DNA of 64,000 nucleotides, from positions 2,689,812 to 2,753,811 of the forward strand of contig OZ251539.1 in assembly GCA_965243135.1 (NCBI GenBank). Direction: 5' to 3'. The DNA comes from Alphaproteobacteria bacterium (GTDB lineage Bacteria; Pseudomonadota; Alphaproteobacteria; MPNO01; UBA830). Both the position numbers and the translations under genes were made by a program. Within the stretch, counting starts at the first letter, position 1. Each line of letters begins with the position of its first letter. Positions 613 to 38,498 of the stretch are shown here, piece by piece. The notes under the pieces were generated by a model. That model ran no database searches. It saw only the letters and a program-made list of their open reading frames with translations, and had not been told where the DNA came from.

Positions 613-1833
613 TTATTTTCCGGACATGTTCGCGATTTCCCGGCGGAACCTGTGGCGGAGCGCAAGGCTCCAGGCGAAGGCGGCGAGAATGGCCGCCGCC
701 GCGATCGCCACCGGCCATCGAAACCCGACGAAATCCGAGACGGCTCCCATGATGAACGCGCCGACGGCGGGCGTGCCCAGCCACAGGATGCCGTAGAGGC
801 TGACGACGCGTCCCCGAATCGAGTCCGGGACTTCTGCCTGAACGAGCGATTGCACGATGATTCCGCAGGCGTTGAGCAGGAAGCCCCAGACCACGAAAAC
901 GGCGGCGGCCGCCGCGATGTCGGGCGCGGCGGCGAAAGCGGTCTGCGTGACGAAGAGCAGGAAGAGCGAAGCGATCAGTATGTCGCCGAGACCGCGCAGG
1001 CGGCCGCGGCGCGACAGCCAGATTCCGGACAGCAACGACCCGAACCCGGCGCCGGCCGTCAGCAGCGCGAGGCCGTCGGCGTCCATTCCGAAGACCGCGC
1101 CGGCGAAGCCGGGCAACAGTTCGGCGACGGCGCGGCCGAAGAACGATACGCCGAAAAGGAGCACGAGCAGGGGGCCGATCAGTCGATGTCCGGCGACATG
1201 CCGGACTCCTTCGAGGATTTCCGACGGAACGTCCATGAGGGACTTCTTCCCGGAAATCTGCTGGCGGGCGACGATCAGGTACAGTCCTGCGAGCATCGGA
1301 ACGTAGCTCAGCGCATTGACGACGAACGTCACGCCGACTCCGAAGTAAAGAATGATCGCGGCGGAGATCGCCGGGCCGATCATGCGGGAGCTGTTCCAGA
1401 TGGTCGAATTGATTCCGATGGCGGCGGCGATCTCCCGCCTGTCGACGATGGTGCCGATCAGCGCCTGCCGGAACGGCTGATGAATTCCCTGCAGGGAACC
1501 CTGAATCAACGCGAAGCAGAACAGCCGTTCGATCGTCATCCAGCCGGCAAGGGTGAACAGGGCGAGTCCGGTCGCCTGAAGCATGTGGGCGTACTGGACG
1601 AAGCGCACCGCCTTCAGCCTGTCGACCCGGTCCGCGAACGCCCCCGCGATCGGCGCGACGACGACCGTCGGCGCGAGATCGGCGAAAGCCACCAGGCCCA
1701 GCCAGGTTCCCGAGCCGGTCAGCTCCCAAGCGAACCAGCCGACCGCCATGCGCTGAACCCACGTGCCGATCAGCGACGGAATCGCGCAAATGGTGTAAAT
1801 GCGGTAATTGCGGTTGGCCATCGCGACGGCCAT
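613..1833 (-). CDS. MFS transporter (EntS / MFS_3-like exporter), ~407 aa
   Basis: C-terminal 407 aa of the 766-aa minus-strand ORF has 12-TMS MFS-like hydropathy with conserved G/P-rich loops. ATG at 1833 (MAVAMANRNYRIY...). The upstream part of the ORF is Arg-rich nonsense. Confidence 0.75.
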   Translation of the reverse strand: MAVAMANRNYRIYTICAIPSLIGTWVQRMAVGWFAWELTGSGTWLGLVAFADLAPTVVVAPIAGAFADRVDRLKAVRFVQYAHMLQATGLALFTLAGWMTIERLFCFALIQGSLQGIHQPFRQALIGTIVDRREIAAAIGINSTIWNSSRMIGPAISAAIILYFGVGVTFVVNALSYVPMLAGLYLIVARQQISGKKSLMDVPSEILEGVRHVAGHRLIGPLLVLLFGVSFFGRAVAELLPGFAGAVFGMDADGLALLTAGAGFGSLLSGIWLSRRGRLRGLGDILIASLFLLFVTQTAFAAAPDIAAAAAVFVVWGFLLNACGIIVQSLVQAEVPDSIRGRVVSLYGILWLGTPAVGAFIMGAVSDFVGFRWPVAIAAAAILAAFAWSLALRHRFRREIANMSGK

Positions 1834-1895
1834 GCCGCCGAGCCAGGACGGCTTCCCCCGCGCTGCGACGCCCGGCGCGGACCTTCCGCGGCCGG

Positions 1896-3362
1896 CTAGA
1901 AGATTCCGAAGTATTCCCGGTGCTCCCAGTCCGTGACCGTCGACAGGAAACGCGCGATCTCGGCTTGCTTGATGGTGACGATGTAGTCGACAAAGCGGTC
2001 GCCCATCGTTTCCCGAAACAGGCCGCTGTCGCGCAACGCATCGACCGCTTCCATCAAACTGCCCGGCAACGGCTCTCCTTCGGCGTCGTAAGGCGTGTCG
2101 GTGGCGGCGGACGGTTCGAGATCGTTCGCGATGCCGTCCAGGCCCGACAGCAATTGCGACGCGAAATACAGATAGGGATTCGCGGCAGGTTCGCCGACCC
2201 GGTTTTCGATCCGCGATCCCCGGTCGTCGGGAGCGGCGAGGACCCGGATCATGGCGCCGCGATTGTCTTTCGACCAGACCGCGCGGTCCGGCGCCAGCGA
2301 GTGGGGCCGGAACCTTTTGTAGCCGTTGATCGTCGGCGTCGTGAAAACCGAGGCCGCGCGGGCGTGCCGCAGCAGCCCCGCGACGAACCGCCGGCCGGTT
2401 CGCGAAAGCGCCTCGCCGTTTTCCGGCATGAAAGCGTTGGTCCCGGTTTCGCGTTCGAGCAACGACTGGTGAAGATGCCAGCCGCTGGAAAACAAGTTGG
2501 GAAGCCCCGGCCTGCACATGAAGGTCGCGTGCAGCCGGTTGCGCCGCGCGATCTGCTTGACGGCGCTCCGGAACAGCACCATCAGGTCGGCCGACTCCAG
2601 GCCCGCGGCCGGACGAAACGTCGCTTCGACCTGGCACGGCCCGAATTCCACCTCCATCGACCGCAACGGCATGCCCAGTTCGATCAGGTTGCCGCGCAGA
2701 ATTTCCAGCGCGGGGTCGAGTTCGTCCGCCCGCTGCTCGGTGAGGTACTGAAATCCGTGGGCAAGCAGGCCGACATCGGGCGGCGTTCCCGGCTGGGTAG
2801 CGTGTTCGGGCGAAAGCTTCGGATCTTCGAGCATGAACAAATGGAATTCCACCTCGAGTCCCGCGACGTAGTCGTAGCCCGCCTCCGCCGCCCGCCGGAC
2901 GGCGTCGCGGCACAGCGCGCGGGTGGAAAACGGCACGGGCGTCCCGTCGGGGAAGTAGATGTCACACAGCATCCAGCCCGTGGACTGCGCCCATGGCAAC
3001 GTCCTGAACGTCGAAGGGTCGGGAACCATCACGAAGTCGCCGCCGCCGGTCATTTCTTCCATGTCGAATCCGCCCCCGGCGGCGAACACGGGGTAGACCG
3101 TCCTGTGCGACGTGTCCTTGGCGAGCAAGGTGGTCGTCATGGTGCAGCCGTTGCGCATGGCGCCCGCCGCTTCTCCGGCCATCAGCGTCTTGCCGCGGAG
3201 TATTCCATGCTGGTCGGCGAAGGAGAGGCGGACGACGTCGAGTTCGTTGCGCTCGATTCGTTTCAGGACGTCGGCGCCCGCCAGATGGTCGTCGTCGCTC
3301 CAGAGTCCGTGACGTTCGACGAGCCCGTCCCTTCCGCCTTCGATCACAGCGGCGCGGCCCAT
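1896..3362 (-). CDS. Glutamine synthetase family protein (GS-like gamma-glutamyl ligase, type I fold)
   Basis: Translation carries the GS catalytic-domain hallmarks (LEVEFHLF, GWHLHQSL, NRGAMIRV, NPYLYFA). ATG at 3362 (MGRAAVIEG). The upstream part of the 844-aa ORF belongs to the overlapping Rieske gene region. Confidence 0.8.
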   Translation of the reverse strand: MGRAAVIEGGRDGLVERHGLWSDDDHLAGADVLKRIERNELDVVRLSFADQHGILRGKTLMAGEAAGAMRNGCTMTTTLLAKDTSHRTVYPVFAAGGGFDMEEMTGGGDFVMVPDPSTFRTLPWAQSTGWMLCDIYFPDGTPVPFSTRALCRDAVRRAAEAGYDYVAGLEVEFHLFMLEDPKLSPEHATQPGTPPDVGLLAHGFQYLTEQRADELDPALEILRGNLIELGMPLRSMEVEFGPCQVEATFRPAAGLESADLMVLFRSAVKQIARRNRLHATFMCRPGLPNLFSSGWHLHQSLLERETGTNAFMPENGEALSRTGRRFVAGLLRHARAASVFTTPTINGYKRFRPHSLAPDRAVWSKDNRGAMIRVLAAPDDRGSRIENRVGEPAANPYLYFASQLLSGLDGIANDLEPSAATDTPYDAEGEPLPGSLMEAVDALRDSGLFRETMGDRFVDYIVTIKQAEIARFLSTVTDWEHREYFGIF

Positions 3363-4612
3363 GCCGACCGTTCGCGCCGGAGCGCTTCGGCGGCCTTCCA
3401 TGCCCGCTCCCAGCCGTTCGCCGGCGCTATCGTATCGATCGCCGCCGGGCCCTTTTCGCCGTTCGGCGGCGGCGGCCCGTCGCCGAGCGCCCGGATCAGC
3501 CTGCGGCGGTAGGCGGCGATGCCCTTGTCCGAAGCGCCGAGATGTTCCTTCGTGCGGTCGTAAATCGGTCCGGGAGCCTCGACCGCCCACTGGTCGTGAA
3601 CGTTGATGTCGAAGCCCATGCCCGTAAAGGTGCGCTCCCGCTGTTCTTCGGGATCGAATCCGTATTCGTTGGACCGGTTCTTGCGGGACCGGTAATCGGG
3701 AAGCGTGTAAAGTTCCAGCCGTTGGGCGCGCATGAGGTCGCGTTTCACTTCGGTCTCGAACGCCGTGAAGATCGCGTACCACCAGCAATGCGTATCGTCG
3801 ACGGGAACATGCCATTGGGTGATGTTCATGTCGTTCGACATGGGAATGACGATGGCGTTGGGGAACAATTGGTTCGTGACGCGCACGTGCAACCGCCCGT
3901 CGCCGATTCTGCGGAGCGCGGTCAATCGGAGGCCGTAGCCGGTATCGTCCACGCGGATTTCGGGGCAGGGATGCTCCCGCAGGAGCCGGGTGACCGGAAC
4001 GTCTTCCGTTTCGTCGCCGAACTGCCGACCGTAGTCCTCTTCCCGATCCTCGAAGAAACGGTGGAGAAACGAGGCATGCGCGGGATCGATTCCCACTTCC
4101 AGGGCCTGCAACCAGTTGCACTCCATGAAGCCCTTGAAGGCGAAGGCGAACGCTTCGGGCGCGGCGAAGCAGTCGAACTCCGGGAGTTCGGGCGGGTCGC
4201 CGTTCCCGAGCCAGGCGAACACGATTCCGTTGCGCTCGACGCAGGGGTAGGCGACATGTCGGATTTTTTCCCGGAATCGGCTGCCCGGCGGTTCGGCCGG
4301 CTGCTCCAAGCACCGGCCTGCGGAATCGAACAGCCAGCCGTGGAACGTGCAGCGCAATCCTCCGTCCTCGAGTCGGCCGTAGCGGAGGTCTGCGCCCCGG
4401 TGCGGGCATCGCCGGCCGACCAGGGCGCATTCGCCGGCTTCGTCGCGGAAGAGGACCAGATCCTCGCCCATAAGCCGCACCGGCTTCACCGGGCGGTCGC
4501 CATCCAGTTCCTCGGTCAACGCCGCCGGTTGCCAGTAGCCGCGCATGAGCGAACCGCAGGCCGTTCCCGGCCCCGTTCGGGTCACCAGTTCGTTGTCTGC
4601 CTTGCTAAGCAT
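3344..4612 (-). CDS. Rieske (2Fe-2S) non-heme iron oxygenase alpha subunit (alpha-only type, GbcA/CntA-like)
   Basis: Rieske motif CPHRGADLRYG...CTFHGW; the C-terminal catalytic domain has mononuclear-iron ligands. ATG at 4612. No beta subunit gene adjacent. Confidence 0.8.
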   Translation of the reverse strand: MLSKADNELVTRTGPGTACGSLMRGYWQPAALTEELDGDRPVKPVRLMGEDLVLFRDEAGECALVGRRCPHRGADLRYGRLEDGGLRCTFHGWLFDSAGRCLEQPAEPPGSRFREKIRHVAYPCVERNGIVFAWLGNGDPPELPEFDCFAAPEAFAFAFKGFMECNWLQALEVGIDPAHASFLHRFFEDREEDYGRQFGDETEDVPVTRLLREHPCPEIRVDDTGYGLRLTALRRIGDGRLHVRVTNQLFPNAIVIPMSNDMNITQWHVPVDDTHCWWYAIFTAFETEVKRDLMRAQRLELYTLPDYRSRKNRSNEYGFDPEEQRERTFTGMGFDINVHDQWAVEAPGPIYDRTKEHLGASDKGIAAYRRRLIRALGDGPPPPNGEKGPAAIDTIAPANGWERAWKAAEALRRERSAWAAPL

Positions 4613-5129
4613 TCGGGGATTCTAACTGCATACCTCGCCGGATCCAATCCGAGGCGTCCGCGCCTCGCGATTTTCGCCGGGCCGCCCGTCTCGCCGCGCC
4701 GCTGGTCCGAACGCGGTCGCGCCGTCTTGGGAAAGCGCCCGCAGGCGACCGCCTGTTCGACCTTTTCCGCCAATCTTGCGAGCCGTTCGCTTGCGAGGAG
4801 CGCGAACAGGCGGCTGCGGGGAGAGTTCAGGCTTTTCCGGGAGGATTCGCGCCACATCGCCGCGTCGTCCGCAGCCATCGGGCCGCGGCTGCGGGATTTC
4901 AAGCGCGAATCCGAGCGGCGCGGCGAAACGGAAACGGTCGCAGAAGTCGAGATACTCCGTCCGGTCCGCGCGAATATCCTCGACAGCGCTCTTGACCTCG
5001 ACGATCATGAACTCGCCCTCCAGCCCCGAGACGTCACCGCGGCGGCCGTTGGGCGCTCGGTCGGCGTTCCCGGTCCGCGGCGCCGAGCGCGACGAGGGAC
5101 GTGGTTTCGGACGCCGGCCCGGCGAGCGG

Positions 5130-5444
5130 TCAATCGCCCTCCGCGGTGGCGGGCGCCGCCGCCGGATTCCATTGTCCGCGCCGCATTCGCGAAATAACGT
5201 ATCGGCTGAACAATCCGGCCTTGCGGAACGGTTCGTCCGCTGCGAACGCGTCGGCGGCGGCGCGAGACGGGACGTTGACGATCAACAGGCTTCCCGTCCG
5301 CGCGTCGCTGTCGTCGGCAAGCGTCGCGCCGCCCAGGACGAGGATATCCTCGTGCCTGGCGAGATAGTCGAAATGAGCTTGCCGGTTTTCTGCGCGAATG
5401 CGGTTGGCGTCGGGCCCGTCGACGCCATGGATCACGTAAAGCAC
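5130..5444 (-). CDS. YciI-like family protein (104 aa)
   Basis: Size and sequence (MLYVIHGVDGPDANRIRAENRQAHFDYL...) match the YCII-related domain. Confidence 0.65.
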   Translation of the reverse strand: MLYVIHGVDGPDANRIRAENRQAHFDYLARHEDILVLGGATLADDSDARTGSLLIVNVPSRAAADAFAADEPFRKAGLFSRYVISRMRRGQWNPAAAPATAEGD

Positions 5445-5462
5445 GCCGCATCTCCGGGCGCT

Positions 5463-6465
5463 TCAGGCGCCGCGCATGAGCTTCAGGATCTCGGTGGCGG
5501 GAATGCCGTTCTCTTGCCATTCGGCCACGACTTCCCGTTCGAGCTTGGCAAGCATCGACAGCGCCTTGCGCACCTCCGCGTCCGGAAGCCTGACGAGATT
5601 GTGGGCGTCTGAGGCGGCCAGAAAGGCCATGCCCTTGGCGTGTTCGGCATCGTAAATTTTTCCTCCGGTCTCGCCCCAGTTGCTGCCGACCGACTTCTCG
5701 ATGATGTCGCGATGCGCCGGCGACAGCTCGTTCCAGCTTTGCTTGTTCATCACGATGAACATGGGCGAGGAGCCGAACGGGATCCCGCTCGCGAAGTGAC
5801 GGGTCACTTCCTTGATCTTGAAAGTGTGCAGAACCGTCGGGGAGACGAGCACGCCGTCCACGGTTCCCCGGGCGAGGGCGTTGTAGAGCTTGGTGATCGG
5901 CATGGGCACCGGCACGGCGCCGAGGGCCTTGATCGACCGCGCAGACATCTGCGAGGGAGTGCGGAGCTTGAGGCCCTTGAGATCGGCGACCGTCTTGATC
6001 GGCTTGTTCCTGGTCATGATGATCGGCGGATCGATAGCCCAAAGCGCCAGCACCTTGACCTGTTCGTATTCCTTGCGGAGCGCGGGGGACTGGGCGTAGG
6101 CCGCGTTGAGGCGGCGGGTGCCGTCCTGCGCGCTGCCCATGACGTTGGAAAGTTCCACCAGGGTCGTGGCCCGGAACAGTTTCGAAGTGTAGCCCTGCAG
6201 GCCGAAAGAGATGTCGGCGACGCGGTCGAGCGCGCGCTTGAACTGCTTGGCCGGGCCCTTGCCCAGCTTGCCGGCCACGAACAGCTTCACCTGAAGACCG
6301 GCGTTCATCGCGTTGATGTCTTTCGCCCACGGCGAAATCATGCGCGCGTTTACAGGGTGCTTCGGTCCGGTAAACGACGCGACTTTGAGTTCCGCGGCAT
6401 CTGCCTGAGGCACTGCGAGCAGGCCGACTGCCGCGGTCAGAACGAGAGAAGTGCGCTTCATCATC
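5463..6465 (-). CDS. dctP: TRAP transporter substrate-binding protein, DctP family
   Basis: Signal peptide MMKRTSLVLTAAVGLLAVPQADA followed by a DctP-like domain. ATG at 6465 with AGGAGG RBS 7 nt upstream. Confidence 0.85.
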
Positions 6466-6844
6466 AGGGTGTCCTCCTGCCGGTGCGTTATGATCGCGAT
6501 TGTGGAACAGGATTGGCGCGTCGTCAATCTTGAGGCGTCTGCACTGCGCCCTTTTTCGGGGCCGCCGCCCGGACGCGGGCATGTTCCGTCGAGAGAGCGC
6601 CGGGCGGTCGAGCAGCGGTGGAACGGCAATGGACCTGCAGCGTCGCTCCGCCCGCCCGTCGGCAGGGTCGCGAGGACGGCCGATCGTCAGAAAAGAAACG
6701 AATGTCCGGCCGCTGCGCGCAGCACAGCGGACTTGGGCCTGACCGCATCCCGAGCGCAGGCGGTCAGGGGGAAAGCGGTCGAACGACCGCAGCGATCCAC
6801 TGCGCAGTTTTACCGGGCCCGCCGGCGCCTGAGGGCGGGAGCGA

Positions 6845-8158
6845 TCAATCGAAAGATTCGATCATCGTGTTGGGCAGGAACAGGGCCAGCTCGGGGACCG
6901 CCAGAAGAAAAAGCAGGCAAAGGGCCATTGCGATCCAGAACGGGACGATCCCGATGAAGATCTCCTTCAGCGGCACGTCTTCCGCGATGCCCTTCACGAC
7001 GAACACGTTGACGCCCACCGGCGGGCTGATCAGCCCCATCTCGATCACGATCACGACCACGACGCCGAACCAGATGGAGTCGTACCCGAGCTCGACGATC
7101 AGCGGATGCACGATGGGCAGCGTCAACACCAGCATCGCGAAACCCTCGAGGAAGGTTCCCAGAATCATGTAGGCGGCCATGATGATCAGCATGATCGCCG
7201 TGCGCGGAAGCTCCGCGTCGATCAGCAGCGCGGCGAGATCGGAAGGAATTTCCGTCAGCGCCATGAACGGGTTGAAGACGTGCGCGCCGATCAGGATGAA
7301 GAAGGCGAGACCGGTCGTGCGGATCGTCTGCAGCAGGACCCTGGACATCGAATCCGCGTTCACCCGTCTGCGCGTCAGAGCCAGAACGAAGGCCAGCATC
7401 GCGCCGACGGCGGCAGCTTCGGTCGGCGTGAAGACGCCGGTATAGATGCCGCCGATGGTAATCAACACGATAAGGATCATCGGTCCCGCCTGGGCGAGCG
7501 AGGACACCCGTTGACCGCCGGTGGACCGTGGGCCGGCCGGACCGAGACCTGGGTTGATCCGGGTCATTATCGCGATCGAAATCATGAACAGCGTCGTCAG
7601 CAGCAGGCCCGGAACGACTCCCGCGAGAAACAGCCGCCCGATCGATTCCTCGACCAGGATGGCGTAGATGATGAAGCCCGTGCTCGGCGGGATGAGGATG
7701 CCGAGGGTGCCGCCGGCGGCGATGGCTCCGGTCGCGAGGCGGCTGGAGTAATTGTAGCGCCGCATCTCCGGCAGCGCGACGCGGCCCATCGTCACGGCCG
7801 AGGCCACGGACGAGCCCGACAAGGCGGCGAAGCCGGCGCAGGCGGCGATGGTCGCAGAAGCCAGCCCGCCGCGCCAGTGGCCCAGACAGGAATAGGCCGC
7901 CGCGTAGAGGTCGCGGCTCATCCCGGATATCGAGGCGAAATTGCCCATGAGGATGAAGAGCGGAATCACGATGAATTCGTAGTTCGACACGATGACCCAC
8001 GCTTCGTCGGCCAGCGTCGACATCGCCGCGTTCCAGCTGTTGAGCGCCCAGATGCCGGCGACGCCCAACAGCGTCATCACGATCGCCACCGGCATGCGCA
8101 GACCGAGCAGCGCGAACAGGGCGAGCAGCCCCAGGATCCCGACCCAAGTGGGACTCAT
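6845..8158 (-). CDS. dctM: TRAP transporter large permease, DctM family
   Basis: 437-aa polytopic membrane protein with typical DctM motifs (GILIPPS, ISPPVGVNVFV). Confidence 0.9.
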   Translation of the reverse strand: MSPTWVGILGLLALFALLGLRMPVAIVMTLLGVAGIWALNSWNAAMSTLADEAWVIVSNYEFIVIPLFILMGNFASISGMSRDLYAAAYSCLGHWRGGLASATIAACAGFAALSGSSVASAVTMGRVALPEMRRYNYSSRLATGAIAAGGTLGILIPPSTGFIIYAILVEESIGRLFLAGVVPGLLLTTLFMISIAIMTRINPGLGPAGPRSTGGQRVSSLAQAGPMILIVLITIGGIYTGVFTPTEAAAVGAMLAFVLALTRRRVNADSMSRVLLQTIRTTGLAFFILIGAHVFNPFMALTEIPSDLAALLIDAELPRTAIMLIIMAAYMILGTFLEGFAMLVLTLPIVHPLIVELGYDSIWFGVVVVIVIEMGLISPPVGVNVFVVKGIAEDVPLKEIFIGIVPFWIAMALCLLFLLAVPELALFLPNTMIESFD

Positions 8159-8162
8159 GCGT

Positions 8163-8681
8163 TCATGGCGGCGGCGCGTCTGCCTCGCCGCGCCAGGCGC
8201 GCAGCGCCATCACGAAAAACGTCAGGGCGAATACGGCGCTGCCGGCAATCATGACGGCGATGAACGGGGAGTGCGGGATTTCGATCAATTCCGTCGCTTC
8301 GCCGATTTCCATCGCGTCGCCTAACAGGACGATGCAGCGCCAAGTCAAGAGCGCCACCAGCAGCGAAGAAAGGATCCGCATCGTCACGTCCGTCCAGCGG
8401 GTGAGATTGGGGCGTCCGAGTCCGGAAATCACGTCGACGGCGATATGCCCGCCGGTCCAGCCGCAGTAAGCGAAACCGAGGAACGCCACCGGCACGAGGC
8501 TGACCGAGGCGAGGTCCGTTCCGCCCAGCGGGGGCGCGTTGAAAACGCGGCGCATCAGGACCGAATAGCAGACGAGCGCCATCAGCCACATCAAGGCGAC
8601 GCCTGCGACGATCGCCATCGCCTTGACCGAGCGGTCGAGCGCCTTTTCGGCCCCGGTAAATTCTACGGTATCCCGCTCCAT
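8163..8681 (-). CDS. dctQ: TRAP transporter small permease, DctQ family
   Basis: 172-aa, 4-TMS protein immediately upstream of dctM with 4-nt spacing; operon order dctQ-dctM-(380 nt)-dctP. Confidence 0.8.
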
Positions 8682-8750: not shown

Positions 8751-8827
8751 TGGCGCACCCGACAGGATTCGAACCTGTGACCTCTGGCTTCGGAGGCCAG
8801 CGCTCTATCCGGCTGAGCTACGGGTGC
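8751..8827 (-). tRNA. tRNA-Arg (anticodon CCG)
   Basis: Minus-strand read GCACCCGTAGCTCAGCCGGATAGAGCGCTGGCCTCCGAAGCCAGAGGTCACAGGTTCGAATCCTGTCGGGTGCGCCA gives a cloverleaf with anticodon loop CUCCGAA and encoded CCA. Near-identical to E. coli tRNA-Arg(CCG). Confidence 0.85.
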
Positions 8828-17145: not shown

Positions 17146-19461
17146 TTACGGCCGGGCGGCGCGGATCGCCTGCCACACTCTGAGGGGCGTAAGCGGCATT
17201 TCCGCGTCGGTCACGCCGAGCCCCGAGAGCGCGTCGACGACGGCGTTGACCACCGCCGCGGTCGCGCCGACCGTGCCGGATTCTCCGCCGCCCTTCACGC
17301 CGAGCGGATTGGTCCGGCAAGCCGCCGCGAAATCCCGCGTCTCGATCATCGGCAGGTCGTCGGCCCGCGGCATGCAGTAGTCCATGAACGAGCCGGCGAG
17401 GAGCTGGCCTTCGGAATCGTAGGTCACGTCCTCCATGAGGGCCTGGCCGACTCCCTGCGCCACTCCGCCGTGAACCTGGCCGGCGAGCAGCAGAGGGTTG
17501 ATCACCTCGCCGGAATCGTTGACCGCCACGTGGCGAATCAGTTCGACGGCGCCGGTGTCGGGGTCGATTTCCACTTCCGCGAAGTGGGTTCCGTTGGGCC
17601 AGTTGGGACCGCTCTCCGGCGTCCAGGCACCTTCCGCCGAAAGTCCGACGCCGAGCTCCGCCGGCCAGCCCATGGGCATGAAGGTCTGGGCCGCGAGTTC
17701 GCAGATGTGAATCGACCGGTCGGTGCCGGCGACCTTGAGCGCGCCTTCTTCGAACTCGATGTCTTCGGCGGCCGCCTCCAGCAGGTGGGCGGCGATCTTC
17801 TTCGCTTTTTCGACGATCGCGTCGGCCGCGGCCCGCAAGGCGGAACCGCCGATCGACATGGAGCGGGATCCGTAGGTGCCGCGTCCGAAGGTCACCGCGT
17901 CGGTGTCGCCCTGGACCAGGCGGACGCGGTCGAACGGGACGCCCAGCCATTCATGGATCATTTGCGCGTAGGAGGTCCGGTGGCCCTGCCCGTGGCTGAA
18001 GGTGCCGGCCGCGACGGTCACGCCGCCGGTCTCGTCGAAGCGGATCTCCATCCGGTCGTTGAAGGGCGCCGCGAAATCGATGAAGGAGCAGACGCCGAGG
18101 CCGCGAAGCCGGCCCCGCGCGGCGGCCTCCTCCCTGCGGGCGGCGAAGCCGGCCGCGTCCGCGACGCCGGCGGCGTGGGCGGCGAGCGCCGGAAAATCGC
18201 CCGAGTCGATCACGGTCGGCACCGGCGTCGCGTACGGCATCTTCTCCGGGGAGACGTAATTGCGCCTGCGCAGCTCGATCGGATCCGCGCCGAGCTCGTC
18301 GGCCGCCATGTCGAGCAGGCGTTCCACGACGTAGATCGCTTCGGGCCGCCCTGCGCCCCGATAGGGGCCGGTCCAGGCCGTATGGCTGAACACCGCGCGG
18401 ATGTGGACGTGCATCGCCTGAAAATCGTAGACGTTGGGATAGACCATGGCGCCGATGCAGGCGGACACCGGCGCCGATGCGGACAGATACGCGCCGAGGC
18501 CGTAATCGGCGCGCACCCGCAGCCCGAGAATCCGCCCGTCGCCGTCGAGCGCCAGTTCGCCCAGACAGTCGGCGTCGCGTCCGTGGGTGTCGCTGACCAG
18601 CGATTCGGACCGGTCGGCCGTCCACTTGACCGGCCGCCGCAGCCGTCTTGCCGCCCAGGCGCACAGGGCGTCTTCGGGGAAGACGTTGTTCTTCATGCCG
18701 AAGCCGCCTCCCACGTCGGGGCAGACGATGCGAAACGAACCCGCCGGGACGCCGAAGATTTCCGCGAAGACGGGGCGGTGCTGGTGGGGTCCCTGGCTGG
18801 ACATCCAGATCGTGAAGCTGTCCTGTCCGGGATGATATTCGGCGAGGGTCGCCCGCGGTTCCATCGCGTTGGCGGAGATGCGGTTGTTGCGCAGGCGCGC
18901 CTTGACGACGTGCCGGGCGGAAGCGAACGCGGCTTCCGCGGCGTCGCGGTCGCCGAGCTCCATGTCGAACCACAGATTGCCGGGCGCGTCGTCCCACACG
19001 AGGGGCGCGCCTTCGACCGCAGCGTCGCGCGTGGAGCCTGCCGCGGGCAGAATTTCGTAGTCGACTTCGATCGCCTCCGCGGCGTTCCGCGCCTGCGCCA
19101 GAGTCTCGGCGACGACGAAGGCGACCGGATCGCCCACGCACCGCACCCGGTCCCGGGCGAGGATCGGATGCGCCGGCGTGTAGGTCGCGGGGCCGCCGAA
19201 AGCCATCGGCGGCACGTGGCAACCGATGTCGCGGAGACCGTCGGCCTCGACGTCCCGGCCCGCGAGAACCGCGAGCGCGCCGGGCATGCGCGCGGCGGCG
19301 TCGGTGTCGACTCCGTTCACGCGGGCATGGGAATGGGGCGATCGCAAGACGTAGCCCACGGCCTGCCGCGGCAGGTCGATGTCGTCGACGTAGCGGCCGC
19401 CGCCTCTCAGAAGCCGCGGATCCTCCGTTCTCGGAACGGGCTGGCCGATGCCGAATTTCAT
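17146..19461 (-). CDS. Xanthine dehydrogenase / aldehyde oxidase / CO-dehydrogenase family molybdopterin-binding large subunit
   Basis: 771 aa from ATG at 19461 (GGGGAGG RBS). Conserved Mo-cofactor regions (GGGFGMK, AGTFSHGQGH, GVKGGGESGT). Confidence 0.85.
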   Translation of the reverse strand: MKFGIGQPVPRTEDPRLLRGGGRYVDDIDLPRQAVGYVLRSPHSHARVNGVDTDAAARMPGALAVLAGRDVEADGLRDIGCHVPPMAFGGPATYTPAHPILARDRVRCVGDPVAFVVAETLAQARNAAEAIEVDYEILPAAGSTRDAAVEGAPLVWDDAPGNLWFDMELGDRDAAEAAFASARHVVKARLRNNRISANAMEPRATLAEYHPGQDSFTIWMSSQGPHQHRPVFAEIFGVPAGSFRIVCPDVGGGFGMKNNVFPEDALCAWAARRLRRPVKWTADRSESLVSDTHGRDADCLGELALDGDGRILGLRVRADYGLGAYLSASAPVSACIGAMVYPNVYDFQAMHVHIRAVFSHTAWTGPYRGAGRPEAIYVVERLLDMAADELGADPIELRRRNYVSPEKMPYATPVPTVIDSGDFPALAAHAAGVADAAGFAARREEAAARGRLRGLGVCSFIDFAAPFNDRMEIRFDETGGVTVAAGTFSHGQGHRTSYAQMIHEWLGVPFDRVRLVQGDTDAVTFGRGTYGSRSMSIGGSALRAAADAIVEKAKKIAAHLLEAAAEDIEFEEGALKVAGTDRSIHICELAAQTFMPMGWPAELGVGLSAEGAWTPESGPNWPNGTHFAEVEIDPDTGAVELIRHVAVNDSGEVINPLLLAGQVHGGVAQGVGQALMEDVTYDSEGQLLAGSFMDYCMPRADDLPMIETRDFAAACRTNPLGVKGGGESGTVGATAAVVNAVVDALSGLGVTDAEMPLTPLRVWQAIRAARP

Positions 19462-19617
19462 GGACGCCTCCCCGGCGGGCAGTATTGCGGTTTCCGGATA
19501 TTCGTTCATATATGCGGGCGTGTCGAGGGCGAGGCCGGCCGCGGAAACCCGGCGGCGCGCGGGGCGCCGGCTCCGTTCGCTGGACTTCGCCCGCCGCCCC
19601 GCCATATTGCGCACGCC

Positions 19618-20454
19618 ATGGAACTGCCTTTCAGAAAGATGCACGGGCTCGGAAACGACTTCGTGGTGATCGACGCGCGTCCGGGGGAGCCGTGGGCCGG
19701 ATTCGCCGTCGATTCCGCCTGGGCGGCCGCCGTCGCCGATCGCCATACCGGCGTCGGATGCGATCAGCTGGTCGCGATGGAAGAATCACCCGGCGGGCGC
19801 GAAGACGTCTTCATGCGAATCTGGAACGCCGACGGCGGCGAGGCGGGCGCCTGCGGCAACGCGGCCCGCTGCGTCGGGGCGCTGCTGATGGACGAGCGGG
19901 GCGCCGACGCCGTCCGCATCCGGACCGTCGCCGGCGCGCTGTCGGTCGCGCGCGCCGCCCGCGGCATGGTCGCGGTCGACATGGGCGCGCCGCGATTCTC
20001 GTGGGACCGGATACCGCTGAGCGGGCGGGCCGACACCCTGCACCTGAACCTCGGGCGCGGCCCGCTTTCCGATCCGGCGGCGGCCAGCATGGGCAATCCG
20101 CACGCGACCTTCTTCGTCGACGAGGTCGAAGCGATTCCGCTCGCCGAGATCGGGCCGGCGCTCGAGATCGATCCTCTTTTTCCCGAAGGCGCCAACATCG
20201 GCGTCGCCCGCATCGACGACGCCGACCGGATGCGCCTGCGGGTCTGGGAGCGCGGCGCCGGCGTCACGCTCGCTTGCGGCACGGCGGCCTGCGCCGCGGT
20301 CGCGAACGCCTGGCGCCGCGGCCTCGCCGGACGCGGCGTGACCGTCGCCATGGACGGAGGATCGCTGCGGATCGACTGGCGGGAGGACGACCGGATCCTC
20401 ATGACGGGGCCGGCGGAGACGAGCTTCCACGGACTGCTCGAGACGGGATCCTGA
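19618..20454 (+). CDS. dapF: Diaminopimelate epimerase
   Basis: MELPFRKMHGLGNDFVVID... with the two catalytic Cys motifs (GNAARC, CGTAAC). 278 aa. Confidence 0.9.
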   Translation: MELPFRKMHGLGNDFVVIDARPGEPWAGFAVDSAWAAAVADRHTGVGCDQLVAMEESPGGREDVFMRIWNADGGEAGACGNAARCVGALLMDERGADAVRIRTVAGALSVARAARGMVAVDMGAPRFSWDRIPLSGRADTLHLNLGRGPLSDPAAASMGNPHATFFVDEVEAIPLAEIGPALEIDPLFPEGANIGVARIDDADRMRLRVWERGAGVTLACGTAACAAVANAWRRGLAGRGVTVAMDGGSLRIDWREDDRILMTGPAETSFHGLLETGS

Positions 20455-24394: not shown

Positions 24395-25801
24395 CGGCGG
24401 CGGAAACGCTTCCGGGACATGACGAGATCGAACTTGCGCTTTTCGGCCCGGGGTACGGCGAGAGCGTCGTCATGCATATCGGCGACGGTGAATGGGTGGT
24501 CGTCGACTCCCGCATCGACAAGGACGGCAGACCGAACGCTCTGACCTATCTGGAGAACCTCGGCCTCGATCCGGCCGAAGTTGTCGTTCTGATCGTGGCG
24601 ACTCACTGGCACGACGACCATATCCGCGGGATGGAGCGCGTGGTCGAGGCACAGGGCCCGCTTTTGTTGCTCGGCTGCGCTAGGTCTCCAGGAATTTCTT
24701 TCCATTGTCGGCGCTCTCGAAGACCGCAGCTTTTCCGGTTTCGGTTCCGGGGTTCGGGAACTTCACGGCGTCTTCACCCGACTTCGCGGAGCGGCGTCGA
24801 GGCCGACGTTCGCCCTCGCCAACCAACGCGTTCCCATGCGCAACGAGTGCGAGATCTGGTCCCTCTCGCCCGACAGCGGAGTCTTCCAGAATTTCCTGAA
24901 ATCTATCGACGGTCTCGTGCCCGGCACCGGTCAAACCAAGGCTCGACTTCCCGGCCCGACGCCCAACGAGGCGGCGGTCGCGCTCTGGGTCGAGGTCCAA
25001 GACATCGCGGTATTGCTTGGGGCGGACTTGGAGAAGTCGGGCTGGACAGTCATTTTGCGAAGCAAGGAGCGTCCTGTCGGCAAGGCGTCGGCGTTCAAGG
25101 TCCCGCATCACGGATCCGCGAACGCCGACGAACGGGAGGTATGGACGCGAATGTTGGAGTCGGCTCCCTTCGCCGTGCTTGCGCCTTGGCGCAGAGGCGG
25201 CCATGCCCTTCCGGGCGAGAACGACGCGCAGCGCATTCTTTCGCGCACAGGGAATGCCTACGCGACCGCGAAAGACAGCCGACGTGCGCCCAGGCGCCGG
25301 GAAAGAATGGTCGAGCGGAGCATCCGGGAGTCCGGCCTCCAACTTCGAGAGCTGGCGATGTCCCCCGGCTGGCTTAGGTTACGGCGGCCGCTCCACCCAA
25401 AGGCGCAATGGTACAGTCGAGAAGTTTGGGACCGCGTGCCATCTCAAGGACTTCGCTGCGCCGTAGCCGACCGCGACGGCGGGCGTCCGACAAAGCCCGC
25501 GCAAGTCGGCCCGATCAAGCGCGGCCGCCGATCGTCGAACCCGAGTCCGAAAGCGCGAGGAGACTTCATTTCCGGCGACCATCGCACTTCCGAAGGAGCG
25601 CGGCGGCCGTTGACGCCCTCGCGGGCGGGTGCTGTCCTCGCAGCTGTCTACGGACGCGGAGGTTTCCGTTCGCGCTCTGGCTTCATGGGGAGCCCGCGGG
25701 TAATCAACGGAGAAGCGAAGTCGCGAAACAAGACCGGCAAAATCATCGGCCGCGCCCACGATTGCGGCGATTGCAAACGGTTTGCGCTTTCGCCGATATA
25801 G
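24358..25801 (+). pseudogene. MBL-fold metallo-hydrolase (ComEC-like beta-lactamase fold), disrupted by at least one frameshift
   Basis: Frame 1 encodes HxHxDH (IVATHWHDDHIRG) then degenerates near 24660-24700. Frame 2 continues with protein-like sequence including the KVPHHGS motif (24836 onward) and a non-protein-like Arg-rich tail. Confidence 0.4.
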
Positions 25802-25844
25802 GGCGGCTCGACGCCGCTGTCATCACGAACAACGGAAACGCGAA

Positions 25845-26888
25845 ATGACCGAATCCAGACGATCTTTTCTCGGCAGCGGCGTTGCCGCGGCGCTGGGAGC
25901 CTCCGCGTTGGCCGCGTCGGCGGCGCATGGCCGCCCGACGATTCGCTGGCGCCTTCAGACCTATGCGAATCCGGCCCTTGCGGAACATGTCGTCAAGCCC
26001 GCGGTGGACGCTTTCAACCGGGCCGCCAACGGCGAAATGGAGATCGAGCTCTTTTTCGCCGACCAGCTCGCGCCCGCAAGCGAGCTTTTCGAGGCGTTGC
26101 GGAACGGCACGGTCGACATCGCGCAATCCGACGACGATTCGATCGCCGCTCCGACCGACGTATCCGTGTTCGGAGGCTATTTTCCGCTTGCCCTGCGATA
26201 CAGCCTCGACGTGCCCGTCCTGTTCAGCCGCTACGGGCTCGGCGAAATCTGGGATGCCGCCTACGCTGAAGTCGGCGGCGTCAAATGGCTGTCGGCGGGC
26301 GCGTGGGACCCGTGCCATTTCGCGACAAGGAAACCGATCCGGCGGCTGGCCGATCTGGAGGGCAAACGCATTTTCACCTTTCCGACCGCCGGACGCTTTC
26401 TCCGGAGATTCGGGGTAGTCCCCGTCACGCTGCCATGGGACGAAGTGGGATCGGCGATGCGGAACGGGGCGCTCGACGGCATCGCGTGGTCGGGAATCAC
26501 GGAGAACTACACGGTCGGCTGGGCGGACGTGACCGAATACTTCCTCACGAACAACATCTCGGGGGCCTGGATCGGCCATTTTTTCGCGAACGAGGATCGC
26601 TGGAACGCCCTTCCTGAGCACCTCAAAACGTTGTGGCGTCTGGCGATGGATTCGTCCCATTATTACCGTCAGCACTGGTACTGGGGCGGCGAGGCCGATC
26701 TCAGGACTCGGGGATCCAGAATGCAACTCACCTCCATTCCGGCCGAGGAATGGGCCACGGTCGAAGCCGAGGCCGACCGGTTCTGGGACGAGATTGCGGC
26801 AGTCAGTCCGCGTGCGAGGCAAGTGGTCGAGATTTTCCGGCAATACAACGCCATCATGGCGAAAGCGGGCCAACCTTACCGCTGTTAG
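25845..26888 (+). CDS. Solitary TRAP-type substrate-binding protein (DctP family) with a Tat signal
   Basis: MTESRRSFLGSGVAAALGASALAASAAHG twin-arginine signal; DctP-like domain. No dctQM adjacent. Confidence 0.8.
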   Translation: MTESRRSFLGSGVAAALGASALAASAAHGRPTIRWRLQTYANPALAEHVVKPAVDAFNRAANGEMEIELFFADQLAPASELFEALRNGTVDIAQSDDDSIAAPTDVSVFGGYFPLALRYSLDVPVLFSRYGLGEIWDAAYAEVGGVKWLSAGAWDPCHFATRKPIRRLADLEGKRIFTFPTAGRFLRRFGVVPVTLPWDEVGSAMRNGALDGIAWSGITENYTVGWADVTEYFLTNNISGAWIGHFFANEDRWNALPEHLKTLWRLAMDSSHYYRQHWYWGGEADLRTRGSRMQLTSIPAEEWATVEAEADRFWDEIAAVSPRARQVVEIFRQYNAIMAKAGQPYRC

Positions 26889-32401: not shown

Positions 32402-33253
32402 TCAAAGGCTGCGGGCGTGGACGCGCTTCAGGAAGTCGATCACCTGGCCGTTGAAACGGTCCGCGTGTTCGATGTTCGGGCAGTGTCCGCAGTTTTCGTA
32501 GACATGATGCTCGTTGTCGGGGATGCGCTCGGCCAGTTCGTGGGAATAGCCCTGACTGCGCAACGGATCGTTGGCGCCGGCGACGATCAGAACCGGTACC
32601 GCGACGTTCTCGTAGACCGTGTCGTCCGGCACGCCGAAACCCTGTTTCGCGCCTTCGTTCCGCTCCTGGCGCTTGAGACGCGGCGCGGACGCGCATTCCC
32701 AGGCGCCCGGCAGCAGCGCCATTTCCTGGCGCTTCGCCACGTACGCGTCGTCGTCGCCCCATTTGGGGTCGTCGAGCATGGCGTGAAGGAGTGCCCGCAT
32801 CGCTTCCGCGGTTCCGTCGTACGCGAGCAACGTCTTCCGCTCCTCCGTCAGCGGCGTGAACCCGCCGCCCGAACACAGCACGGCCGACCGCACCGGCAAA
32901 ATCGGCGGCGGGTCGGCGATGATCCGCGCAAGATTGGATCCGCCCATGGAATTTCCCACGAAATCCGCCTCGGAGATCCCGAGCTCCTCGAAGAAACGTT
33001 GCATGTGGCGGTATACGCGCCCGCGCGGGTCGGCGAAATCGAACACCTTGTCCGTGCGCCCGAACCCGAGCCAGTCCGGCGCGACGACGTGGAAATGCTC
33101 GGCGAGCGCCGGGACGGCGAACTCCCAGCTGATTTCGGCGCAGCCGCCGAATTCGCCGGAATGCAGCAAGGCCACCGTCGGCGCGCCGGGGTCGCCCGCC
33201 TCCAGATAGTGAGTGTTGACGCCGTCGACGGCGACGTATTTCGATTCGATCAT
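32402..33253 (-). CDS. Alpha/beta hydrolase (meta-cleavage-product hydrolase-like)
   Basis: HSGEFGG, GNSMGG nucleophile elbow, C-terminal NCGHCPNIEH. ATG at 33253. Confidence 0.75.
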   Translation of the reverse strand: MIESKYVAVDGVNTHYLEAGDPGAPTVALLHSGEFGGCAEISWEFAVPALAEHFHVVAPDWLGFGRTDKVFDFADPRGRVYRHMQRFFEELGISEADFVGNSMGGSNLARIIADPPPILPVRSAVLCSGGGFTPLTEERKTLLAYDGTAEAMRALLHAMLDDPKWGDDDAYVAKRQEMALLPGAWECASAPRLKRQERNEGAKQGFGVPDDTVYENVAVPVLIVAGANDPLRSQGYSHELAERIPDNEHHVYENCGHCPNIEHADRFNGQVIDFLKRVHARSL

Positions 33254-33272
33254 CTCCGGCTCTCCCGACGGT

Positions 33273-34502: not shown

Positions 34503-34520
34503 GCGTTCGCGGCCCGCGAA

Positions 34521-36514: not shown

Positions 36515-36746
36515 GCCCGTTGTTCCATCCTTCGCCTCTCGCCGGTTGCGCCGCACATTACTTTTCCGCCGGCCGGTTGGCAATCCGCGCGGGAGAGAGG
36601 CGGCGTCGCGGATTCCGGGCGACGACGAAGGGGCGGACGAACCTTGGCAGATCCTTGCCGCCAGGCGGCCGCGGGGCAGGCGTCGGCGACTGCGAATCGG
36701 CGGCCGCGCGCATCGCGAAGCGCCGGCCGCCCTGAACGCGGCGCGG

Positions 36747-38375: not shown

Positions 38376-38498
38376 GTCTGCGTTTCGCTCCGGTTGTTCC
38401 GTCTGTTTGATAGCACGGCGAGCGGCTCGCCGCCCGCGCGCGGGAATGCGCAAAGGCCGTCGCGCGGCGCGTCCCGCCCGCCCCTTTCGGACAGGGGT

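Follow-up and report, generated by a model that had tools for sequence, protein, structure and literature searches.

In several described systems aromatic amines are attacked by glutamylation and then oxidation. AtdA1-A5, TdnQTA1A2B, DcaQTA1A2B and NpaA1-A5 combine a GS-like (glutamine-synthetase-like) arylamine gamma-glutamylating enzyme with a GATase1 hydrolase, an FNR-type reductase and an oxygenase built from alpha and beta subunits (Ring_hydroxyl_A/B type); pTB30 shows the gene order, Q-T-A1-A2-B. The SadA/SadB/SadD proteins of Hydrogenophaga sp. PBC, with SadC, constitute a 4-aminobenzenesulfonate 3,4-dioxygenase system (Gan et al. 2012, via PMC5632844). According to PMC5632844, the sad genes are arranged in the order oxygenase, GS-like enzyme, ferredoxin (sadA-sadB-sadD), and the operon is kept across Hydrogenophaga, its natural substrate being given there as not identified.

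The window, that is, the whole stretch of 64 kb that was analysed, contains a Rieske oxygenase gene followed by a GS-like ligase gene. This pair resembles the Sad system in that the oxygenase has a single component and no beta subunit, in that a GS-like gene comes next, in the small [2Fe-2S] ferredoxin gene that stands third in Betaproteobacterial relatives (with a reductase gene too in several loci), and in the wide conservation of the operon; for SadA (WP_009515254.1) and SadB (WP_009515256.1) the likeness is drawn from described gene content and order. The differences are that the window has an MFS_3 gene instead of a ferredoxin gene, and that the pair belongs to the chromosomal core of an alphaproteobacterium. 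With Atd, Tdn, Dca and Npa the pair shares the GS-like enzyme, whose catalytic and amine-binding glutamates are conserved, and the proposed logic, glutamylation before dioxygenation. However, their oxygenases are only 27% identical to that of the window over the Rieske domain, and the window has an alpha-only oxygenase of the PDO type, encoded ahead of the ligase, the reverse of the atd/tdn/dca order, with no hydrolase.

The sulfanilate degrader Novosphingobium resinovorum SA1 carries, on its plasmid pSA3, a pair 58%/58% identical to that of the window. Flanked by IS elements, this pair is situated near genes for maleylacetate reductase, ferredoxin, reductase and glutaminase. An extra folP gene also lies close to it. 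The cluster look-up yielded no Hydrogenophaga member. The sequence-only reading, made from the letters of the window, had proposed an uncharacterised route; given the oxygenase, GS-like, ferredoxin order known from sad (PMC5632844) and the plasmid pair, the comparison indicates that the window pair most likely belongs to an already known kind of system, that of glutamylation and subsequent oxidation of arylamines.

Genes of the window and extent of the conserved unit

All seven genes recognised from the letters alone in 613-8681 are confirmed as real, on the minus strand and with the coordinates then assigned, and Pfam and NCBIfam bear out their identities. The TRAP block (5463..8681, minus strand) consists of dctQ (8163-8681; Pfam DctQ), dctM (6845-8158; Pfam DctM) and, after a gap of 380 nt with a promoter-like site, dctP (5463-6464; Pfam DctP). 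The YciI-family gene (5130-5444, minus strand; YCII, PF03795, 63 bits) is 18 nt downstream of dctP. The 517-bp stretch between it and the Rieske gene is mostly taken up by a decayed MmcB-like gene (4622..5071, minus strand), with a Pfam MmcB-like match over 39 residues only. Then come the Rieske oxygenase gene (3344-4612; Pfam Rieske, 69 bits, and LigXa_C, PF19301, 93 bits at a cut-off of 27), the GS-like ligase gene (1896-3362; Gln-synt_C, 271 bits) and, 62 nt downstream of the latter, the MFS_3 transporter gene (613-1833; PF05977, 126 bits), all three again on the minus strand.

Of the 85 related loci, which span Alpha-, Beta- and Gammaproteobacteria, 82 have the GS-like gene immediately 3' of the Rieske gene and in the same orientation, and the top Rieske and the top GS-like homologues are on shared contigs. 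This linkage is far beyond chance, so the pairing of a GS-like enzyme with an oxygenase, already remarked on in the sequence-only reading, is upheld. The pair is carried jointly by at least tens, and probably hundreds, of bacterial species, and its identity across genera is very high, 60-90%. Such conservation, together with the location in the chromosomal core, suggests that the natural substrate is maybe no aniline at all. Neither in the window nor in the related loci does a Ring_hydroxyl_B (beta-subunit) gene adjoin the pair.

The GS-like gene had been taken to start 19 nt inside the Rieske gene, with translational coupling of the two. The ATG at 3362 does sit 19 nt within the Rieske gene, the stop codon of which is TGA at 3346-3344, and the overlap itself is real, but the figure of 19 nt probably results from an over-extended start. 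With an alternative in-frame start, the GTG at 3347, the overlap comes to 4 nt (GTGA). This -4 position is shared by about 18 related loci; the -19 start is confined to the window and loci L001, L002, L082 and L030. The product has 488 amino acids if counted from the ATG and 483 from the GTG, the more widely conserved start. Since 2-310 nt separate the two genes in most relatives, translational coupling would be clade-specific, confined to the clade with the overlap.

An MFS_3 gene comes after the pair in L001-L007 and L091 alone, with identities of 68-93%. It is missing in more than 85% of the loci, where importers of the ABC or TctC type are present instead; L091 combines MFS_3 with an ABC importer. 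The MFS_3 protein resembles EntS and Mef, scoring under both family cut-offs, and from its sequence is a probable exporter of the EntS/Mef type.

The nearest relative, L001, retains the Rieske-GS-MFS triad at 88-94% protein identity. The segment corresponding to 5544-8601 is absent from it, and of dctQ and dctP only stubs of about 80 nt each are left, a clean deletion of TRAP. In the place of the decayed gene L001 has an intact MmcB-like gene with a product of 161 aa, and the DNA identity to the window is 67% in this region as against 89% in the flanks; the MmcB-like remnant is outside the system. YciI is linked to the pair in L001 only. Beside the pair in other loci no homologues of the window TRAP genes were found, with weak, distant matches in L007, L012 and L039. 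Hence neither the TRAP importer nor YciI holds its place in the module as originally drawn, and of the idea of one module on one strand the common direction of the genes stands, whereas only Rieske-GS is conserved. The TRAP genes are a lineage-specific neighbour, perhaps an uptake system, outside the conserved unit. The functional unit is the Rieske-GS pair, with MFS_3 added in the window's clade.

The oxygenase and the ligase

The Rieske oxygenase (422 aa) has the Rieske motif C69-P-H71 ... C88-T-F-H91. The predicted bridging Asp and 2-His-1-carboxylate iron site, D176, H179, H184 and D340, show no variation in alignment A1; the first three align to D178, H181 and H186 of PDO, and D340 to the Asp of IPDO and RO_CH34. 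Among solved structures, 7FHR, 9INA and 7FJL are the closest by sequence (E of about 1e-61 to 1e-65). Foldseek matches the AF2 model (pLDDT 80.8) to 9INA at a TM of 0.83 and to 7V28/7FJL at 0.78, ahead of a second group at about 0.55. Judged by sequence and modelled fold, the oxygenase is an alpha-only enzyme of the phthalate/isophthalate dioxygenase clade.

The features shared with PDO_KF1 (7FJL/7V25), IPDO (9INA) and RO_CH34 (7FHR) are the fold (TM 0.78-0.83), the LigXa_C domain, the absence of a beta subunit, the metal ligands and two carboxylate-binding arginines, although the identity is only about 32%. The arginines, Arg231 and Arg244 of PDO, correspond to R234 and R244, neither of which varies in alignment A1. 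Phe339 of PDO_KF1 corresponds to the conserved F334, whereas Ser179, Ser182 and Phe280 are replaced by P177, A180 and A280, without conservation, and Arg207 is not conserved, the region around it being not alignable. PDO has a fused FMN/[2Fe-2S] reductase and no partner ligase. In contrast, the relatives of the window enzyme have a separate Fer2 ferredoxin and a GR-type reductase (Pyr_redox_2/Reductase_C), and the window oxygenase is paired with a GS-like gene.

The sequence-only reading had compared the oxygenase with GbcA, CntA and Stc2, which likewise are alpha-only Rieske oxygenases and act on nitrogen compounds. Neither the PDB sequence matches at E<=0.001 nor the 50 listed fold matches include any of these three. 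By both kinds of match the enzyme instead falls in the aromatic-carboxylate dioxygenase clade, a known ring-hydroxylating family, with its partners encoded elsewhere; this is the second of the outcomes that the sequence-only reading had itself named as counting against it.

The ligase scores 228 against TIGR00653 (cut-off 429), 241 against NF045547 (650) and 223 against TIGR03105 (470), and with scores under all three equivalog cut-offs it was rejected as GlnA, PuuA or type III GS. Its nearest solved relative is NpaA1 (8WWU; 464 bits, E=7e-138, 46% identity), the other solved GS structures scoring at most 194 bits each, and the identity to DcaQ of pTB30 is 51%. On these comparisons the ligase is predicted to be a non-GlnA, arylamine-type gamma-glutamylating enzyme, in agreement with the sequence-only reading.

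Residues E232 and E234 of NpaA1, the amine-binding Glu pair (PMC11335346), are E237 and E239 in the ligase and are invariant across 124 family members. The arylamine entry loop is hydrophobic in NpaA1 (A69, I70, G71, P72, F75) and in DcaQ ('APFFFD'), unlike that of the window ligase, which is basic and polar: the hydrophobic tunnel loop VAIGPFFFDLVSSM of NpaA1 is replaced, at equal length, by MTTTLLAKDTSH(R/K)T in the window family. In the family alignment K82 is conserved in 124/124 sequences, H86 in 123/124 and R/K87 in 119/124. The basic loop, as aligned, fits an anionic substrate. The pocket of the ligase was read by alignment to NpaA1, and that of the oxygenase by alignment to PDO.

Electron-transfer and other partner genes

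A motif search of the whole 64 kb revealed neither a plant-type ferredoxin motif nor any Rieske motif besides that of the oxygenase. In tblastn searches of the same 64 kb, neither the ferredoxin and reductase of the relatives nor a DcaT-type amidotransferase produced a match, and among the subset of window ORFs scanned with Pfam there is no reductase, ferredoxin or beta subunit. Thus the earlier remark that none of these three is encoded nearby is borne out over 64 kb by motifs, tblastn and the Pfam-scanned ORFs. The same searches showed no ring-cleavage or downstream catabolic genes in the window.

In the relatives, a ferredoxin gene comes after the pair in L050, L055, L071, L087 and L093, and in the Comamonadaceae and Cupriavidus the pair is followed by both ferredoxin and reductase genes. 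The reductase of the Hydrogenophaga system is reportedly encoded apart from the sad pair (Gan et al. 2012), and the window pair likewise has none beside it. In Polaromonas JS666, a GntR gene borders the series Rieske, GS, Fer2, reductase, ABC transporter, type 1 glutamine amidotransferase; a Comamonas-like contig has the Rieske-GS-Fer2-reductase core with an ABC transporter and an amidase, and Cupriavidus necator the same core with a GntR gene downstream. For the binding proteins of the ABC transporters that come after the pair, the nearest solved structures are 4EY3/4EYG/4EYK (E=2e-109) and 4EVQ/4EVR (E=2e-117), which we take to be benzoate-derivative binders of Rhodopseudomonas palustris. 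Other loci contain binding proteins of the TctC and TRAP types, both organic-acid classes. In the Bradyrhizobiaceae the neighbours of the pair are genes of the benzoyl-CoA (box) pathway, under an IclR regulator. No ring-cleavage genes consistently adjoin the pair in the related loci. One pair locus is located amid nutrient-scavenging phn genes.

Proposed function and alternatives

We propose that the pair performs a two-step, Sad/Atd-like attack on an aromatic amine with an acidic group, and estimate the probability of this reading at about 0.6. By homology, the GS-like enzyme would use ATP and glutamate to convert the arylamine to an N-gamma-glutamyl anilide, and the Rieske oxygenase would then dihydroxylate the ring, at the carbon to which the amide nitrogen is bound and at the adjacent one. 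The unstable product would break down to a compound of the catechol type (protocatechuate or 4-sulfocatechol, for example), and the nitrogen would leave as glutamine. Electrons in the relatives would be delivered by the small [2Fe-2S] ferredoxin and the glutathione-reductase-type ferredoxin reductase; for the window pair these proteins would be encoded beyond the window in the same genome. Both the pocket residues and the transporters linked to the pair point towards an anionic aromatic amine, e.g. 4-aminobenzenesulfonate or 4-aminobenzoate, the most likely substrate class being a para-substituted aminobenzoate or aminobenzenesulfonate. Several observations count against this reading: the searches of the window showed no ferredoxin, reductase, amidotransferase or ring-cleavage genes, the oxygenase gene precedes that of the ligase, the pair is strongly conserved in a chromosomal core location, and Arg207, Ser179, Ser182 and Phe280 of PDO are not kept. 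Speculatively, MFS_3 probably acts as a valve through which the substrate or its glutamylated form leaves the cell, and TRAP may import the substrate in the window's lineage.

An unlikely alternative is a non-aromatic substrate: the ligase would glutamylate an alkyl- or amino-acid-type amine, and the oxygenase would hydroxylate or dealkylate the gamma-glutamyl amide, the nitrogen going to glutamine or glutamate. The P450 of the isopropylamine (Ipu) pathway performs an analogous oxidation, the GS-like family includes the alkylamine enzymes PuuA, IpuC and GmaS (NF045547 and the GmaS structures are weak matches here), the tunnel loop is polar rather than aromatic, and both the phn neighbourhood and the lack of consistently adjoining ring-cleavage genes would agree with such a substrate. 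However, the ligase is far nearer to NpaA1 and DcaQ than to GmaS/PA5508-like enzymes (at most 141 bits), the closest relatives of the oxygenase all dihydroxylate benzene-carboxylates, the linked binding proteins have presumed benzoate-derivative binders as nearest structures, and the Bradyrhizobiaceae pair adjoins box genes.

Somewhat more doubtful still is a detoxification and export triad, in which toxic arylamines, e.g. PABA analogues, would be glutamylated, oxidised and exported by MFS_3 without growth benefit. It would account for the EntS/Mef-like gene after the pair in the window's clade, for the coexistence of MFS_3 with an ABC importer in L091, by which MFS_3 is not needed for uptake, for the window having no downstream catabolic genes, and for the extra folP on pSA3. 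On the other hand, most loci have importers in place of MFS_3, and the characterised Atd, Tdn, Dca, Npa and Sad systems are catabolic, as described in PMC11335346 and PMC5632844. The least probable explanation is that of the sequence-only reading, with the whole of 613-8681 (TRAP-YciI-Rieske-GS-MFS) forming one co-regulated catabolic operon. The genes are co-directional, DctP is related to organic-acid TRAP binding proteins, and the order (TRAP)-YciI-MmcB-Rieske-GS-MFS is common to the window and L001, hence ancestral in the window's lineage. But L001 has lost TRAP and kept the triad, the decaying unrelated gene and 517 bp intervene between YciI and the Rieske gene, the gap before dctP contains a promoter-like site, and TRAP and YciI are unlinked to the pair in about 90 other loci.

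Within the preferred reading, an attack on an acidic arylamine, we tentatively suggest that the pair is not a xenobiotic pathway but a widespread housekeeping system of soil and marine Alpha- and Betaproteobacteria, salvaging nitrogen, perhaps also carbon, from a natural anionic arylamine. If so, the source could be, e.g., 4-aminobenzoate from folate turnover, and the nitrogen would arrive directly as glutamine. In the window's clade MFS_3 would then replace the GATase1 hydrolase as a safety valve against build-up of the glutamylated intermediate, and sulfanilate degradation in Hydrogenophaga and Novosphingobium would represent recruitment of an ancestral system.

Genes of the locus and the start of the ligase gene

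The ORF listing and the Pfam and NCBIfam scans bear out the seven minus-strand genes of the sequence-only reading. They encode an MFS_3 transporter (613–1833), a GS-like ligase (1896–3362), an oxygenase with Rieske and LigXa_C domains (3344–4612), a YciI protein (5130–5444) and the TRAP components DctP (5463–6464), DctM (6845–8158) and DctQ (8163–8681). The tRNA-Arg(CCG) gene (8751–8827) is situated immediately upstream of them. A decayed MmcB-like gene (PF06319; 4622–5071, minus strand), whose match to the family has shrunk to about 39 residues, lies between the YciI and Rieske genes; it is intact (161 aa) at the same position in the locus L001, the nearest relative. The order of the TRAP genes is unusual, with dctQ-dctM followed by dctP after a 380-nt gap (6465–6844). 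A sigma-70-like site, TTGACG-17-CACAAT, is seen ahead of dctP (6527–6499, minus strand), the site count being no better than in shuffled sequence. Scans for promoters and terminators gave no information, their counts not exceeding those of shuffled sequence.

The stop codon of the Rieske gene is TGA at 3346–3344. The 19-nt overlap with the ligase gene, proposed earlier, is indeed obtained if the latter starts from ATG 3362, but an in-frame GTG at 3347 yields a canonical GTGA overlap. When the position matching the conserved ligase N-terminus was mapped across 86 related loci, about 18 of these had a start codon at exactly −4, and the −19 start was confined to the window and the loci L001, L002, L082 and L030; hence GTG 3347 is probably the true start. 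Some gene callers pick a longer, 501-aa form of the ligase. Since a gap of 2–310 nt lies between the two genes in most relatives, translational coupling is a trait of the window's clade, not of the whole family.

The conserved unit

One genome per GTDB species was scanned with the Rieske family alignment. In these species-representative genomes relatives are encoded, and were confirmed, in at least 552 pattern-matched stretches. The best 80 of these were retained as loci, coming from Bradyrhizobium, Afipia, Rhodopseudomonas, Methylobacterium, Sulfitobacter, Cupriavidus, Pusillimonas, Pigmentiphaga and many MAGs. The Rieske–GS pair is abundant in metagenome sources, Tara (ocean) sequences among them, and its identity between genera is 60–90%. 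The GS-like gene is directly downstream of the Rieske gene on the same strand in 82 of 85 related loci, the exceptions being L012, L033 and L044.

The order Rieske, GS-like, MFS_3 is seen beside Rieske homologues of 88%, 73% and 62% identity; TRAP genes are present in none of these three contexts and YciI in one. Among the loci examined, MFS_3 accompanies the pair only in the nearest clade of the window (L001–L007 and L091). The DNA of L001 is 89% identical to the window over the triad, that is, the pair with the MFS_3 gene, and just 67% identical over 4763–5071, within the decayed MmcB-like gene. The segment 5544–8601 of the window is missing from L001 (at L001 8907–8909), forming a clean 3.06-kb deletion of dctQ-dctM-dctP. 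As L001 retains stubs of dctQ and dctP of about 80 nt, adjoining the same tRNA-Arg(CCG) gene, the TRAP genes were already present in the ancestor of this lineage and have disappeared while the triad stayed. From the locus contexts, the species survey and the L001 comparison it follows that the conserved unit is the Rieske–GS pair, MFS_3 being a clade-specific accessory and TRAP and YciI being neighbours. The earlier observation thus largely holds, but the boundaries of the seven-gene catabolic module proposed earlier were too wide, the unit having two or three genes, and a link with the TRAP importer is not supported, given its deletion in L001 and its absence from the three homologue contexts.

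The other members of the MFS_3 clade (L002–L007 and L091) share an upstream block of genes for an enoyl-CoA hydratase, alpha/beta hydrolases, a 120–140-aa protein of an unknown family and a Zn alcohol dehydrogenase, sometimes also UbiD and an alpha-beta Rieske dioxygenase. The window is without this block. In L002–L006, genes for a luciferase-like monooxygenase and a double-glyoxalase protein are found downstream.

The triad sits in a chromosomal core region (infC, thrS, cobS/cobT, aroK, accA). A genomic island at tRNA-Arg was considered and rejected, because the base composition of the window is flat and synteny with L001 extends from thrS/infC through the triad. At E≤0.1 the tRNA is the sole Rfam element, with no regulatory RNA in the gaps, and no ring-cleavage, reductase or regulator gene fitting the system was found in the remainder of the window. 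Elsewhere, a 571-aa ORF (42241–43956, minus strand) has ankyrin repeats in its N-terminal part fused to a Transposase_31 (YhgA-like) domain, which is unusual on a bacterial chromosome. At 32402–39653 (minus strand), genes for a sulfatase, two luciferase-like monooxygenases, two alpha/beta hydrolases and an acyl-CoA dehydrogenase are clustered; they are unrelated to the pair and may serve the use of organosulfur compounds or esters. There are also an unlinked second gene for a DctP-family binding protein (25782–26888, plus strand) and a gene for a molybdopterin subunit of the xanthine dehydrogenase family (17146–19746, minus strand).

The ligase, the oxygenase and the proposed chemistry

The ligase misses the NCBIfam equivalog cut-offs for GlnA, gamma-glutamylputrescine synthetase and type III GS, and so is not a canonical GlnA, in line with the earlier reading. 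By far its best solved relative (464 bits, all other GS having at most 194) is 8WWU, the 1-naphthylamine gamma-glutamylating enzyme NpaA1 (PMC11335346). Among annotated plasmids, the top tier (57–63% identity) is formed by GS genes adjoining a PDO-type (phthalate dioxygenase-type) Rieske gene, and the second (about 51%) by DcaQ/TdnQ of chloroaniline plasmids, including pTB30 with the canonical Q-T-A1-A2-B layout; identity to the NpaA1 plasmid is 44.5%. In the alignment of 124 family members with NpaA1, whose residue numbering agrees with PMC11335346, the amine-binding E232 and E234 (NpaA1 numbering) are invariant. The hydrophobic entry loop V68–M81 of NpaA1 (VAIGPFFFDLVSSM) corresponds to MTTTLLAKDTSH(R/K)T in the family, where K82 is invariant, H86 is present in 123 of 124 members and R/K87 in 119, and V201 of NpaA1 is replaced by Tyr in 118. 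Given these basic and polar loop residues and the Tyr at position 201, the pocket seems suited to an amine bearing a negative charge.

The best solved relatives of the oxygenase by sequence are RO_CH34 (7FHR), isophthalate dioxygenase (9INA) and phthalate dioxygenase (7FJL), with E about 1e-61 to 1e-65. The AlphaFold model (24 input sequences, pLDDT 80.8) matches these three with TM 0.78–0.83 at about 32% identity; carbazole dioxygenase and SxtT follow as the next fold tier, with TM about 0.55. Identity to the chloroaniline dioxygenase alpha subunit is 27%, in the Rieske domain alone. The family alignment shows no variation at the Rieske ligands, at the bridging Asp, at the two His or at D340. 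The phthalate-binding residues defined for PDO_KF1 (PMC8649396) include Arg231, Arg244 and Phe339, which correspond to the invariant R234, the invariant R244 and F334 of the window oxygenase, and Ser179, Ser182 and Phe280, which are not retained. The analogy with GbcA, CntA and Stc2, drawn earlier, finds no support: enzymes of this type are absent from the sequence and fold matches listed.

Gamma-glutamylation before oxidation, also suggested by the sequence-only reading, is well supported by homology and by the conserved Rieske–GS linkage. By inference from the Atd/Npa work (PMC11335346) and the homologies, the ligase would glutamylate an anionic aromatic amine, the PDO-type oxygenase would dihydroxylate the resulting glutamyl anilide using a ferredoxin and a reductase encoded elsewhere, and the product would collapse to a catechol-type compound and glutamine.

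Partner genes, transporters and related systems

As noted earlier, no beta subunit, ferredoxin or reductase gene is nearby: none was found in the 64 kb by motif scans, tblastn with the ferredoxins and reductases of relatives, or Pfam on the main selected ORFs. Dedicated genes for the two electron-transfer proteins adjoin the pair in just about 10 of 88 loci, so that the window, in lacking them, shows the common state. The fuller operons include GntR, Rieske-GS-[2Fe-2S] ferredoxin-FAD reductase, five ABC transporter genes and a type 1 glutamine amidotransferase on Polaromonas JS666 plasmid 1; Rieske-GS-Fer2-reductase-ABC transporter-amidase on a Comamonas-like contig; and Rieske-GS-Fer2-reductase-GntR in Cupriavidus necator A5-1. 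In L050 and L087 the Fer2 ferredoxin has 107 aa and the Pyr_redox_2/Reductase_C reductase roughly 410 aa. On Methylobacterium nodulans pMNOD01 the ferredoxin and reductase genes are divergent from the pair, and an IclR regulator is present. In the Bradyrhizobiaceae the pair has a divergent IclR gene ahead of it, a Liv-type ABC transporter a few kilobases downstream and benzoyl-CoA (box) pathway genes further upstream. Just upstream of the Polaromonas operon are a CBASS oligonucleotide cyclase cluster and an ImmA/IrrE-HTH pair (L087 1078–4668). On a soil-metagenome contig (L092 179–7439) IclR-Rieske-GS directly borders a cluster of phn C-P lyase and phosphonate ABC transporter genes; a TonB-receptor/FecR/ECF sigma set occupies its other side.

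The pair-linked ABC binding proteins are of two types, with best solved relatives 4EY3/4EYG/4EYK (E=2e-109) and 4EVQ/4EVR (E=2e-117), which we take to be the 'benzoate-derivative binding proteins' of Rhodopseudomonas palustris. The 4EY3-like protein closely follows the pair, directly or past ferredoxin/reductase genes, in ten loci of Alpha- and Betaproteobacteria, and TctC-type binding proteins occur in eight. The usual cargo of these ABC and TctC classes, and of TRAP systems, is organic acids. MFS_3 resembles the exporters EntS and Mef (NCBIfam) and in L091 stands alongside an ABC importer, which tentatively favours a role in efflux, as a safety valve.

In Hydrogenophaga, sadA (4-aminobenzenesulfonate 3,4-dioxygenase), sadB (GS-like) and a ferredoxin gene are the initial deamination genes; the sad operon is present in all Hydrogenophaga genomes, and its original substrate was probably a natural analogue (PMC5632844). 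The sad gene order is that of the Betaproteobacterial Rieske–GS loci, and the window pair is probably orthologous to SadA (WP_009515254.1) and SadB (WP_009515256.1). The Polaromonas-seeded homologue search and ten Burkholderiales clusters yielded Variovorax, Azoarcus, Xenophilus and Ottowia, and no Hydrogenophaga entry. An IS-flanked pair whose proteins are 58% and 58% identical to those of the window is found in the sulfanilate degrader Novosphingobium resinovorum SA1, on plasmid pSA3. A maleylacetate reductase gene lies 2 kb upstream of it, and nearby are also ferredoxin and reductase genes, a gene for a glutaminase and an additional folP. The latter (dihydropteroate synthase; L086 2726–3556, about 9 kb from the pair) could be a tolerance gene, sulfanilate being a PABA analogue. 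Paraburkholderia terrae KU-15 reportedly has a 4-aminobenzoate (pab) gamma-glutamylation pathway; it was not found by full-text literature search, is absent from the genome announcement, and hence is left out as evidence.

Judged from the sequences, the window system is a predicted minimal, MFS-linked, glutamylation-dependent arylamine dioxygenase of the Sad/Atd type with a phthalate-family oxygenase, that is, of a kind already known. The pair is presently annotated only as 'phthalate 4,5-dioxygenase' and 'glutamine synthetase'. For the window this means a unit of two or three genes in place of seven, with electron-transfer partners to be sought elsewhere in the genome. Seeing the pair as one glutamylation-dependent arylamine oxygenase would correct these annotations, would explain the conservation of the sad genes in bacteria without any sulfanilate exposure, and sets up a tractable experiment to identify what this very widespread pair acts on in nature.
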